61,698 nt of DNA from a bacterium (GCA_030700065.1 JAUYKH010000040.1:1-61698), one strand, 5' to 3'. Shown: positions 55,600-59,505, counted from the first letter of the stretch. Translations and numbers: made by a program. Notes: generated by a model not told the origin, from the sequence alone.

Positions 55600-57129
55600 A
55601 TGGCCAACGCGAATTTGATCCAGCAGCTCAAAGATAAAATTCTCAAATTCCAACCGGATGTAAAGATTGAGAAAGTCGGAACGGTTTTGGAAGTGGGGGA
55701 CGGCATTGCGCGAATCTCGGGACTCACGCAGGCGGCGAGCATGGAAATGCTGGATTTTTCCGCCGGAAGCGGATCCGCCTCCGGCGGAGGAAAACAAACT
55801 TTTGGCGTTGCGCTAAATCTTGAGGAAAATTTGATCGGGTGTGTGATTTTGGGCGATTATACCAATATCAGGGCGGGCGATATGGTGCGCTCGACAGGCA
55901 GAATTCTGTCAGTCCCAGTGGGAGAAAATTTGATAGGTCGTACGGTAAACGCTTTGGGGTTTCCAAAAGATGGGAAAGGAGCCATCAAGGAGAGCGCCTT
56001 TTATCCAGTGGAAAAAATCGCTCCCGGTGTTATCACCCGGCAAAGCGTAAAACAGCCCGTCCAGACGGGAATCAAGGCCATAGACGCGCTTATTCCCATC
56101 GGCCGCGGCCAGCGCGAGCTTATTATTGGCGACCGGCAGACCGGGAAGACAGCGATTGCCATCGACACAATCATCAATCAAAAAGGCCAGAATATGGTCT
56201 GCATTTATGTCGCCATCGGACAGAAGGAGAGCAAAGTTGCCAAAATTGTCGCGGAGCTTGAGAAGCACGGCGCGATGGAATACACGATTGTAGTTTCGGC
56301 GGGCGCTTCGGAAGCCGCGTCGCTATCGTATATCGCGCCTTACGCGGGTTGCGCCATGGGCGAATATTTTATGGATAAGGGCAAAGACGTGCTTATCGTG
56401 TATGACGACCTGTCAAAGCAGGCGGTCGCCTATCGCGAAATATCCTTGTTGTTGCGCCGACCGCCGGGAAGGGAAGCATATCCGGGCGATGTGTTCTATT
56501 TGCATTCAAGGCTTCTTGAGAGGGCGGCAAAACTGAATCCTGATTTTGGCGGGGGGAGTTTGACGGCTTTGCCAATTATTGAAACTCAGGCTGGGGATGT
56601 GTCGGCGTACATTCCGACCAATGTGATTTCCATTACTGATGGACAAATTTTCCTGGAGAGCGACTTGTTCTATAAAGGCATCCGTCCGGCCTTGAACGTC
56701 GGTATTTCTGTTTCGCGCGTGGGTTCTTCCGCCCAGACCAAGGCTATGAAAAAAGTCGCCGGCAAACTGAAACTGCAGCTCGCGCAATTCAGGGAACTCG
56801 AGGCGTTCGCGCAGTTTGGTTCGGATCTCGACGAGGCAACGCGAAAAACTCTGGAATTGGGCAAGAGACTGTCCGAAATTCTCAAGCAGCCGCAATACCG
56901 GCCCGATTCTTTGGAAAGAGAAGTCACGATTGTTTACGCGGTGAACAACGGTTACTTTAACGAAATCCCTGTTGAGAAAATCGCTGAGACGGAAAACAGG
57001 TTTCATCAATATTTAGCCGCGCAAGCCAAAGATGTTCTCGAAGAAATCCGCGTAACCCGCGACCTCTCGGAAAGCACCGAGGAAAAATTAAAGCGCGCGA
57101 TAACGGGTTTCCTGCAGACCATCAAATAA
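55600..57129 (+). CDS. atpA: F0F1 ATP synthase subunit alpha
   Basis: GDRQTGKT Walker A motif, and the sequence is highly conserved throughout. Confidence 0.97.
55769..55788 (+). repeat. Palindromic 20-mer GCGGATCCGCCTCCGGCGGA, in frame (GSASGG); copy 1, in atpA
   Basis: It is identical to 58103-58122. It contains the GCGGATCCGC palindrome and a TCCGCC-TCC-GGCGGA hairpin. Confidence 0.95.
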
Positions 57130-57131
57130 TT

Positions 57132-58055
57132 ATGCCGAGTTTAAGAGACATTAAACGTCGCATCAAATCAATTCAAAGCACGCGCAAAATCACACGCGCG
57201 ATGCAGATGGTTTCGGCTTCCAAAATGCGCAAGGCGCAGAGCGCGGTGACGAATAGCCGTACATATGCGGATTTGGCATGGGAGTTGATAAACTCCGTCA
57301 TTCCCGCCATGCCTGGCGGCAGGCAGGCGCAGGTGACAAGCGGGTTTTTGCAAACGTTTCCGGAAGCTGAAAAAATCGGCATCGTTTTGCTGACCACAAA
57401 CCGCGGCTTGGTCGGGAGCCTTAACAGCAACCTCGCGGCAAAAATAAAAGAGATTCCCAATTCAGAGATTATCAGTGAAATTATCACTTACGGCAAGAAT
57501 GCCAGAACCATCGCCGGGCGGCTTCAAAAAAACGTGGTGGCGGATTTTCCCAAAATGGACAGGATGATTTCCGCAGTGGAAATTTACCCCCTGGCCCGAT
57601 ACATTTCCGATATTTATCAGACAGGGGAGTATCAAAAGATTTTTATTGTCTACAATCATTTTGTCTCGACGCTGATTCAAAAGTCCACCATAAAACAATT
57701 GCTTCCTTTCATTGGCGGTCGCAACCTCACCCGGCCTTCGACCACCCTCTCCGATATCGGAGAGGGCAGGGGTGAGGTAATATACAATGCAATTCAGAAT
57801 GAGTATTTATTCGAGCCCGCCCCCGATCGAGTCATCAATCATCTTCTGCCGAGAATCATCGAATCTCAAATTTACCAGGCTATTTTGGAATCCGACGCTT
57901 CGGAACATTCCGCTCGCATGGTCATGATGAAAAACGCGACCGAGGCCGCGGGCGATCTGATTTTTGATTTAACCTTGACTTACAACCAGGTGCGTCAGAA
58001 CAAGATCACAACCGAGCTGGCGGAAATAACAGCCGGTAGAATCGCGCTTGAATAA
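57132..58055 (+). CDS. atpG: F0F1 ATP synthase subunit gamma
   Basis: IKRRIKS...T.KIT.AM.MV...K...A start and a C-terminal ITTEL.EI..G end. Confidence 0.95.
   Translation: MPSLRDIKRRIKSIQSTRKITRAMQMVSASKMRKAQSAVTNSRTYADLAWELINSVIPAMPGGRQAQVTSGFLQTFPEAEKIGIVLLTTNRGLVGSLNSNLAAKIKEIPNSEIISEIITYGKNARTIAGRLQKNVVADFPKMDRMISAVEIYPLARYISDIYQTGEYQKIFIVYNHFVSTLIQKSTIKQLLPFIGGRNLTRPSTTLSDIGEGRGEVIYNAIQNEYLFEPAPDRVINHLLPRIIESQIYQAILESDASEHSARMVMMKNATEAAGDLIFDLTLTYNQVRQNKITTELAEITAGRIALE
57725..57777 (+). repeat. Nested palindromic element in frame in atpG
   Basis: 22-bp perfect palindrome CCCTCTCCGATATCGGAGAGGG (57745-57766). It sits inside the 8-bp inverted repeat CCTCACCC (57725-57732) / GGGTGAGG (57770-57777). 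Confidence 0.95.
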
Positions 58056-58077
58056 GTAGGAAAGGAAATTTAATAAT

Positions 58078-59505
58078 ATGGATAAACATATGTCCGCCCA
58101 AGGCGGATCCGCCTCCGGCGGAAATATTGGAAGAGTATCGCAAGTAATAGGACCAGTCGTGGACGTGCATTTCGCCGACAGAGTGCCGGGTATTTACAGC
58201 GCATTGATAGTTGAGACAGCCCCTTCGACAGGCTCAGGGCAAAACCGGCTGGTTTTGGAAGTCCAACAGCAGTTGTCTGACAATGTTGTCAGGTCAGTCG
58301 CCATGTCCTCGACTGACGGCCTGAAGCGCGGTACTGAAGTCATCGATACCGAAGCGCTGATCACCGTCCCGGTCGGGAAGCAGACCTTGGGAAGGATTTT
58401 CAATGTCCTGGGGTCGCCGGTGGACGGCAAAGAGGCCGCGCAAACCGAAAAAAGATACCCGATCCACCGGCCCGCGCCGAAATTGACTGATCAATCCATC
58501 AAGACAGAAATCCTGGAAACCGGAATCAAAGTCATTGATCTGATTTGTCCGATTTTGAAAGGCGGGAAGGTCGGTCTGTTCGGCGGCGCGGGCGTGGGCA
58601 AGACAGTTATCATTCAGGAGCTCATCAACAACATCGCCAAGGCCCATGGCGGCGTTTCAGTGTTCGCCGGCGTTGGGGAGAGAACCCGTGAAGGCAATGA
58701 CCTCTACCATGAAATGCAGGAATCCAAGGTCATAGATAAACTCGCCATGGTATTCGGGCAGATGAATGAACCGCCCGGGGCGCGGGCGAGGGTCGCTTTG
58801 TCCGGATTGTGCATGGCCGAGTATTTCCGCGATGAAGAAAAGCAGGACGTCCTTCTATTCATCGACAACATTTTCCGCTTTACGCAGGCCGGCAGTGAAG
58901 TATCCGCGCTTTTGGGACGCATCCCGTCAGCGGTCGGGTACCAGCCGACGCTCGCCTCTGAAATGGGCGAACTGCAGGAAAGAATCACCTCGACCAAACA
59001 AGGGTCCGTTACATCCGTGCAGGCAGTGTACGTGCCGGCCGATGATTTGACTGACCCCGCGCCGGCCACGACCTTTGCGCATCTGGACTCAACCGTCGTG
59101 CTTTCGCGGGCATTATCCGAGCTCGGGATTTATCCGGCCGTTGATCCGCTGGACTCAACCTCGACAATTTTGGATCCCAATATTGTTGGAGCAGAGCATT
59201 ATGATGTTGCCCGCGGGGTGCAAAAAACTTTGCAGCGTTATAAGGATTTGCAGGATATAATTGCCATTCTGGGGATGGAGGAACTGCCCGAGGAGGATAA
59301 AATAACCGTGGCCAGAGCCAGAAAAATCCAGCGTTTCCTCTCACAGCCTTTCTTTGTGGCCGAAGTTTTTACGGGAACTTCGGGGCAATATGTTCCTCTG
59401 AAGGAGACTATCCGCGGATTTAGGATGATATTGGATGGCGAACTGGACAGCGCCCCCGAGCAGGAATTTTACATGAAAGGCGGAATTGAGCAGGTCGGAA
59501 AATAA
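58078..59505 (+). CDS. atpD: F0F1 ATP synthase subunit beta
   Basis: GGAGVGKT Walker A motif and DELSEED-region equivalents, and the sequence is highly conserved throughout. The N-terminal extension carries the 20-mer. Confidence 0.97.
58103..58122 (+). repeat. Palindromic 20-mer GCGGATCCGCCTCCGGCGGA, in frame (GSASGG); copy 2, in atpD
   Basis: It is identical to 55769-55788 and read in the same codon phase. Confidence 0.95.

Follow-up and report, generated by a model that had tools for sequence, protein, structure and literature searches.

A 30-nt twin-hairpin repeat lies in frame within the ATP synthase genes atpA and atpD of a patescibacterium

The F1-ATPase genes atpA and atpD of a bacterium resembling Ca. 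Doudnabacteria (Patescibacteria) share an identical 20-mer, GCGGATCCGCCTCCGGCGGA, at unrelated positions of their coding sequences. Both genes lie on JAUYKH010000040.1:1-61698 of GCA_030700065.1, a stretch of 61,698 nucleotides (nt) that was analysed whole and is called the window here; the source genome (G000) comprises 798 kb in 41 contigs. We find that the 20-mer is very probably the conserved core of a 30-nt twin-hairpin repeat that is dispersed in Patescibacteria, inserts cleanly and survives in proteins as a loop, with a small nuclease as its putative vehicle.

Both occurrences of the 20-mer are exact and on the + strand, as the original prediction had it, and shuffles of the window hold a mean of 0.01 matches to it at up to 3 mismatches. 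Its extent had been underestimated. The real repeat is not 20 but 30 nt long, exactly ten codons, and consists of two 15-nt (five-codon) hairpin units in tandem, each following the pattern TCCGCC-NNN-GGCGGA (Table 1). Each copy is in frame with its long open reading frame (ORF) and encodes a ten-residue peptide; the start ATG of atpD is kept in a close relative, L131. Unit 1 of the atpA copy contains a single stem mismatch. When single-stranded, the DNA of the element folds into two mini-hairpins or, if both loops are complementary, into a single long hairpin, with -14.4 kcal/mol for the atpA copy and, as two hairpins, -13.0 kcal/mol for the atpD copy (z ~ -3.5).

The motif is present elsewhere in the genome. 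Exact 15-nt units number 19 in the 798 kb vs 0 in shuffles, and there are 10 GC-rich doublets of two such units where 0-1 GC-rich ones are expected (shuffles give 1-3 doublets of any composition). The doublets of this genome fit the general formula TCNNCC-N3-GGNNGA. Across 146 genomes of the order, searched for the exact 30-mer while allowing at most 2 mismatches over the 24 stem positions, the repeat occurs in 64, at 0-30 copies per genome, and a reversed-pattern control gives 0 in every genome. Some genera (e.g., g10) are wholly without it, and others hold many copies. Of 301 genomes sampled evenly across the phylum, 16 have the 30-mer, about 10 of them from outside the order. Such patchiness is as expected for a sequence that is mobile or spreads horizontally.

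To describe the surroundings of the repeat, 75 distinct copies with their flanks were collected from the source genome and the genomes of 30 relatives. Genes are not avoided, since 59 of the 75 copies (79%) fall within open frames that span 150 codons or more. Among these 59 copies the three phases are strongly skewed, 47:4:8 (chi-square p = 3e-13). The favoured phase reads S-A-x-G-G-S-A-x-G-G, while the others give (F)PPxADPPxAE or a poly-Arg string, and the 47 copies in the Gly/Ser/Ala phase bear out the proposal that the insert is tolerated as a flexible Gly/Ser loop. Pfam families were matched by the eight host ORFs scanned, namely seven bearing the element (UvrD, a PBP2 transpeptidase, RecG, PolX, GatB, an exonuclease-domain protein, and the genome's own Mur ligase) and the genome's own UvrC. 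The flanks have a strong, symmetric signature, with T at position -2 in 70 copies (93%) and A at +2 in 64 (85%). The commonest unit is the one with a TCC loop (18/75). As the 20 nt shared by atpA and atpD equal the family consensus, they are not evidence of recent copying between the two genes, and conversion solely between atpA and atpD was rejected as their origin.

Table 1. Positions of the repeat copies, their host genes and other hairpin features; numbers without a prefix are positions in the window
Feature	Position	Strand	Remarks
atpA (F1 alpha subunit, 509 aa)	55600-57129	+	long ORF; solved F1 alpha subunits match, E = 1e-220; hosts copy 1
twin-hairpin copy 1	55759-55788	+	TCCGCC-GGA-AGCGGA + TCCGCC-TCC-GGCGGA = TCCGCCGGAAGCGGA + TCCGCCTCCGGCGGA; atpA codons 54-63
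20-mer in atpA	55769-55788	+	GCGGATCCGCCTCCGGCGGA; 3' part of unit 1 and complete unit 2
atpD (F1 beta subunit, 475 aa)	58078-59505	+	long ORF; N-terminal beta motif QVIGPVVDV; hosts copy 2
twin-hairpin copy 2	58093-58122	+	TCCGCC-CAA-GGCGGA + TCCGCC-TCC-GGCGGA = TCCGCCCAAGGCGGA + TCCGCCTCCGGCGGA; atpD codons 6-15
20-mer in atpD	58103-58122	+	GCGGATCCGCCTCCGGCGGA; exact match
GC-rich nested palindrome, other hairpin family	57725-57777	+	in frame, atpG; CCTCACCC...CCCTCTCC-GATATC-GGAGAGGG...GGGTGAGG
short repeat (15-mer)	58225-58239	+	TCGACAGGCTCAGGG; in frame, variable loop of atpD
doublet in Mur ligase gene	C22:1308-1337		other phase, reads FLPSGDPPQGD
doublet in uvrC	C38:21984-22013		reads SPHGGSPEGR; variant doublet TCCCCC/TCTCCC
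doublet at 3' end of rplE (ribosomal protein L5)	C2:27665-27694		outside the window
doublet between hrcA and grpE			intergenic
doublet between convergent rplS and sod genes			intergenic
further doublets			adjoining or separating tRNA genes

Relatives provide empty sites for comparison. The closest AtpA in the GTDB genome collection (G035, 85% identity) is insert-free, reading DF^GNGLM-GVALNLE (a caret marks the insertion point) where the window has DF, the ten residues and then the strand. Likewise, the AtpD N-termini of 21 comparable relatives lack the insert at the window's site, so the identity between the two genes is not ancestral, as had been argued. A filled and an empty allele from the same sample, P0004 (L132) and P0114 (L135), are 96% identical in amino acids and exactly 30 nt apart. 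The filled allele reads CTT GAC TTT^TCCGCCAGAGGCGGATCCGCCTCTGGCGGA^GGC AAT and the empty one CTT GAT TTT^GGA AAT, and a target-site duplication is absent. When this pair was scanned for a recombination tract around the insert, identity next to it dipped to 0.70-0.73 vs 0.83 gene-wide, in small windows of an intrinsically variable loop. Together with the genome- and order-wide repeat, the clean pair upholds the view of a small self-complementary element that inserts into coding DNA. Of the two routes first considered, insertion stands and direct atpA-to-atpD conversion is not needed. A further atpD site is occupied in G006, VDVKF^SAQGGSDSGG^EGS, likewise directly after a Phe codon.

The atpA site has been filled repeatedly. 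In a tree of 30 AtpA sequences built with the loop masked, the three insert-bearing proteins (source genome, G012 and G022) each have an insert-free sister (support 100/99-100), implying three independent events; a single origin occurs in 0% of bootstrap trees. A search of a large protein collection gave 120 AtpA homologues, with filled alleles over-sampled because the search words included the insert, and 35 of these have a lengthened loop exactly after EML(D/E)F. Many such loops translate as intact or decayed copies, e.g., PAGERxSASGG or, in P0003, the decayed SGGAGSRSAG. On a tree of 145 AtpA sequences the long-loop state changes 20 times, with at least 14 changes forced by well-supported branches. 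Judged from these alignments and trees, the atpA turn is a recurrent insertion hot spot in AtpA of the Candidate Phyla Radiation (CPR). The reuse of one codon boundary, taken with the T at -2, argues for a preferred target in addition to selection that favours a permissive loop.

We also considered that no mobile element is involved, the inserts having arisen either by a single ancient insertion in each of atpA and atpD followed by many precise losses or by convergence on a Gly/Ser linker. The insert common to the source genome and L131, the many AtpA loops that resemble decayed versions, and the occurrence of 15-nt unit deletions would all suit such a history. It is nonetheless very improbable, as the same 30-mer sits in dozens of unrelated genes and at intergenic sites, the AtpA tree requires its 14 or more changes, and filled and empty sisters stand at 96% identity. 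Convergence on the peptide is ruled out by identical nucleotides at four-fold degenerate positions; with the genome-wide family, this led us to reject the convergent linker.

An assembly or chimera artefact behind the atpA/atpD identity can practically be dismissed. Metagenome contigs are broken by short GC-rich repeats, and many contigs do end at the 30-mer. However, independently assembled (Logan) contigs from two groundwater samples, X1 and X2, contain both inserts, a single 8841-bp contig of X1 crossing both with 0 differences and two X2 contigs crossing each with 0-1 differences, and relatives from other studies have the same inserts; the artefact was rejected on these grounds. In the source metagenomes, word depth rises from about 17x to 300x and 1000x in bins holding the 30-mer, and the same sequence must therefore be present at many other places in the community.

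In the alpha subunit, a HMMER alignment to solved structures places a clean 10-residue gap at the atpA site, between ...EF-x-x-G and x-G-x-A-x-NLE of the N-terminal domain, which agrees with the lengthened turn proposed at the outset. An AlphaFold2 model of AtpA was built from 60 close homologues; with a mediocre mean confidence (pLDDT) of 64.6, it was used for the N-terminal domain and the low-confidence insert. Residues 57-64 have pLDDT <50 and fall in the turn between strands 49-52 and 68-72, and this turn ranges from 4 to 31 residues among relatives. Alignment and model thus place the alpha insert in what is predicted to be a length-variable beta-hairpin turn. The beta insert lies in an N-terminal extension, ahead of the first conserved strand, as had been described, and the length of this extension varies among relatives. 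In the known structure of F1, both places belong to the N-terminal beta-barrel "crown".

How old the inserts are can be gauged from L131 (P0002, a contig of another study), whose AtpA is 94% identical to that of the window, while the two genes agree at just 54% of 189 four-fold degenerate sites. Its atpA element is at the same site, with 29 of 30 bases identical and all ten third positions matching. Its atpD has one unit vs two in the window, only the second being present (MDKYI^SASGG^NIGK vs MDKHM, ten residues, NIGR). As L131 shares both inserts, they predate its split from the source genome, and their presence in a relative with saturating synonymous divergence means that they are not very recent. 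Taken over both genes, the two sequences agree in 44 of 45 element bases and in 15 of 15 third positions, where 0.54^15 (~1e-4) would be expected for the latter. In the distant filled alleles L132 and L134 (four-fold identity ~35%), the stems are unchanged and the loops alone differ. We conclude that the 15-nt unit is gained or lost as a block with the reading frame kept, and that the element changes more slowly than neutral sites. This pattern could reflect selection acting on the hairpin, a homogenising process such as gene conversion or self-templated correction of the palindrome, or fresh insertions.

This conservation raises the alternative that the twin hairpin is a functional cis-signal under selection and not junk, either a DNA site for uptake, recombination, or nuclease control, as NTS and the DNA uptake sequence (DUS) are in Neisseria, or an RNA structure tuning translation or mRNA decay inside operons. 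It would have spread because alleles bearing it were favoured or preferentially recombined. The nucleotide-level identity to L131 speaks for such a role, as do stems that stay invariant and loops that vary among AtpA alleles with saturated synonymous sites. Intergenic copies also lie in highly expressed operons: the rplE copy makes up the 3' end of that gene, whose last codons are ...F-S-A, the loop of its first unit is the stop codon TAA, and it lies about 20 nt ahead of the S14 start within the spc ribosomal operon; another is the hrcA/grpE copy. There is precedent, too, in the modulation of transformation by NTS hairpins and SsnA (PMC11893778). We still consider a cis-signal unlikely. Copies are few and patchy, with whole genera such as g10 lacking them, insert-free sister lineages are common, and older copies decay visibly, as in SIKAGSASGG of G012 and many degenerate loops. 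A Rfam scan of the atp operon (E up to 1) has a tRNA as its sole match, and a terminator/promoter scan finds no terminator context for the element in atpA or atpD; the atpD unit resembles a terminator pattern on the non-coding strand only, which is uninformative. Moreover, the conservation could stem from gene conversion among copies or from self-templated correction of the quasi-palindrome.

Returning to a dispersed, inserting repeat, our data show that the element enters DNA cleanly with no target-site duplication, typically just 3' of TTN. It lands in coding and non-coding DNA alike, the copies surviving in genes being mostly those read Ser-Ala-x-Gly-Gly twice, as a small flexible loop. The element is presumably selfish or neutral DNA. 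The likeliest vehicle may be a small, UPF0213/SLX1-like, single-domain GIY-YIG nuclease that has the hairpin just upstream of its start codon in tRNA-gene cassettes. Such a nuclease could nick hairpin or cruciform DNA, with repair or copying from another copy then installing the element, and homologous recombination between related populations may also spread filled alleles.

Several observations link the repeat to such nucleases. The genome has 11 matches to PF01541, consisting of the UvrC domain, a short fragment (C40:12949-13089), and nine small ORFs of 78-96 amino acids (one a pseudogene), of which four adjoin tRNA genes and one adjoins the tmRNA gene. At C19:32620-32649, the doublet CCCTCC-GGA-GGAGGG + TCCGCC-TCC-GGCGGA lies 16 nt upstream of the GIY-YIG pseudogene and interrupts a duplicate of the 5' part of the tRNA-Glu gene that comes after. 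Two relatives, G012 and G008, have copies 15 and 22 nt upstream of GIY-YIG ORFs that are intact. The G012 cassette has tRNA-Asn downstream; in G008 the 5' half of a tRNA-Ser is interrupted by the element at the anticodon loop (cttg^doublet^aaaacc), with an intact tRNA-Ser beyond the nuclease gene. The gene-proximal unit is TCCGCC-YCN-GGCGGA in all three cassettes. With 3 of 75 copies within 30 nt of a GIY-YIG start codon, the association is far above chance, roughly estimated at ~2e-4 per copy (about eight such genes per Mb). Copy number also correlates with GIY-YIG gene count (Spearman rho 0.61, n=146; 0.52 at genus level). The nearest solved structures of the adjoining nucleases are UPF0213 (PDB 1zg2, 1ywl) and SLX1, and no NCBIfam equivalog was found for the small GIY-YIG proteins.

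Movement by a Y1 (HUH) transposase of the RAYT (REP-associated tyrosine transposase) or IS200/IS605 type, REP standing for repetitive extragenic palindrome and paired REPs being known as REPINs, would be another route. Y1 enzymes act on single-stranded DNA hairpins and insert 3' of a short target without duplication. The hairpins of ~15 nt in tandem or inverted pairs, the lack of a target duplication, and insertion 3' of a conserved TTN all match this, and Y1_Tnp genes occur in 43 of the 64 element-bearing genomes (odds ratio 3.4, rho 0.34). However, the source genome has no match to Y1_Tnp (PF01797), and the family is absent from 21 of the 64 carriers, including 11 with at least 5 copies and almost the whole of family f1. 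Among comparable coordinates, no element copy is next to a Y1 gene, and REPs are extragenic vs the 79% of element copies in long ORFs. We regard a REP/REPIN-like origin as decidedly unlikely, and Y1/RAYT was rejected as the driver for its absence from the source genome and a third of carriers.

A number of points weigh against the nuclease-borne, neutral repeat that we favour. The order's 30 best-scoring GIY-YIG loci all lack a 6-3-6 doublet within 1.5 kb, and the linkage therefore holds for a subset of cassettes only. The one cassette copy of the source genome (C19) adjoins a nuclease pseudogene with 1 TAA. Cassette copies are hetero-doublets, the first unit being CCCTCC or TCAGCC, where gene-borne copies are TCCGCC homo-doublets. 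Among the cassettes, the element is upstream of the GIY-YIG gene in the three cases and on both sides of it in none. The correlation with GIY-YIG genes is weak evidence, confounded by phylogeny and general mobile-element load, because Y1 transposase counts correlate too. The mobilisation step is one that we only infer. With 15 of 15 third positions against 54% four-fold identity, the element may not be neutral; pure junk would not be so conserved unless gene conversion or palindrome self-correction homogenises it. Finally, the AtpA survey is biased to filled alleles, and while it demonstrates recurrence, its event counts are not rates.

With these points in mind, we put forward tentatively, as possible though rather doubtful, a more specific proposal: that the 30-nt hairpin is a non-autonomous miniature of an undescribed mobile DNA whose sole protein would be a catalytic-domain-only, structure-specific GIY-YIG nuclease (UPF0213/SLX1-like) of ~80-90 amino acids in tRNA-gene cassettes. 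It would home time and again to certain TTN^N sites, of which the EML(D/E)F^ turn of atpA is one, and, given its conservation above the synonymous level, be actively kept palindromic. If true, a nuclease-driven "nano-element" would be writing ten-codon loops into essential proteins across Patescibacteria.

Other hairpins occur in the genome. Single TCCGCC-NNN-GGCGGA units are found inside longer hairpins (CCCCGTAGTG ... CTACTACCGGGG) at C2:11694, C13:22598, C32:6916, and C39:2738; three of the four are ~35-110 nt from tRNA genes and C32:6916 is ~215 nt from tRNA-Tyr. These nested units resemble remnants of tRNA-associated cassettes. There are also NTS-like hairpin repeats, GTCATTCCCG ... CGGGAATGAC, with the core of the Neisseria NTS/dRS3 motif, at C39:35179-35215 and C13:26662-26740. 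GCGGGAATGACA, of these NTS-like repeats, has 9 copies genome-wide, and the TCCGCC-NNN-GGCGGA unit is sometimes nested in an NTS-like loop. The GIY-YIG genes at C28:4372 and C40:10975 are bracketed by matching hairpins, as in Ssn/SRM pairs.

Among known systems, the element is closest in kind to the Rickettsia palindromic elements (RPEs) and the Ssn/NTS hairpin repeats. In the summary of Ogata et al. (2000) given in PMC3184786, RPEs are palindromic repeats of ~105-146 bp in Rickettsia; they keep the frame of the conserved protein-coding genes that they enter, add a surface segment that the protein tolerates, and occur in non-coding DNA as well. The analogy to them drawn in the original prediction applies to behaviour and not to family membership: against the 105-146 bp and rickettsial host given in that summary, the element is 30 nt long and its hosts are Patescibacteria. 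Unlike RPEs, it also shows strict unit-wise insertion and deletion, repeated use of one atpA site, and linkage to small GIY-YIG genes in tRNA cassettes. Ssn proteins are single-domain GIY-YIG nucleases that cut single-stranded DNA at NTS/SRM hairpin repeats, the repeats being scattered through the genome and also found on either side of the nuclease genes themselves (Chenal et al. 2025, PMC11893778). Short (20-50 nt) dispersed hairpin repeats and a GIY-YIG protein of ~80-100 amino acids are common to that system and ours (PMC11893778); in ours, a repeat adjoins the nuclease gene in the three cassettes. In contrast, the repeat here lies inside ORFs in a preferred phase and the nucleases are nearest UPF0213/SLX1; neither tRNA genes nor Patescibacteria are mentioned in the text of the Ssn paper (PMC11893778) as searched.

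The remaining systems are more distant. REP/REPIN-RAYT families share GC-rich hairpins of ~15-35 nt, often paired, with a family-level consensus and no classical terminal repeats or target duplications (PMC3116915, PMC3337134), but REPs are extragenic and tied to RAYTs, unlike an element mostly found in long ORFs whose source genome, like 21 of 64 carriers, lacks Y1 transposases. Phage T4 SegB (PMC2330249), a free-standing GIY-YIG homing endonuclease, exemplifies small GIY-YIG genes beside tRNA genes; SegB, however, has a DNA-binding domain and no dispersed hairpin miniatures, whereas our cassettes contain a duplicated 5' part of a tRNA into which the twin hairpin is set. Miniature inverted-repeat transposable elements have terminal inverted repeats, a target-site duplication, and lengths of ~100-400 bp, unlike a 30-nt element with no duplication. 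DUS and uptake signal sequences (USS) number hundreds to thousands and come from point mutation, unlike a repeat at 0-30 copies per genome that arises as 30-nt insertions. Literature searches for an element of this kind in CPR/Patescibacteria turned up no description, an absence that is no proof that it is undescribed.

If our reading is right, no smaller repeat is known that routinely enters essential genes and leaves them intact, and this one would be widespread in a very large radiation of uncultivated bacteria whose genomes are otherwise minimal. It would explain unusual Ser/Ala/Gly loops in CPR housekeeping proteins and their differences in length, as well as breaks in CPR metagenome contigs and spurious "low-complexity" annotations. 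Reuse of the atpA site, combined with conservation above the synonymous level, would offer a tractable system for the movement and upkeep of hairpin repeats. It would also allow small single-domain GIY-YIG nucleases, whose enzymology was opened only in 2025 by the Ssn work, to be tested as drivers, and the inserts would mark permissive sites in F1-ATPase.

The atp operon has other peculiarities. In both AtpA trees, the protein of the source genome groups with families f3/f6 (85% identity to G035) and not with its own GTDB family f1 (71-75%), a sign that the atp operon may have been replaced laterally or that rates were uneven. The P0004 lineage (L132 4527-6712; L133) has small genes, including a HicA/HicB toxin-antitoxin pair, between atpA and atpG, and small unannotated ORFs lie between atpH and atpA in the L132/L133 relatives, making the operon an insertion-rich locus. 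The atpG palindrome (Table 1) is placed in a variable linker of the gamma subunit, is not present there in L131 or other relatives, and has an inner motif, CCCTCTCC-N6-GGAGAGGG, with 12 genome copies; in-frame hairpin repeats are thus found in all three F1 genes (alpha, gamma, and beta). The 15-mer in the variable loop of atpD has 6 genome copies at up to 1 mismatch and may represent a third short repeat family that is read in frame.

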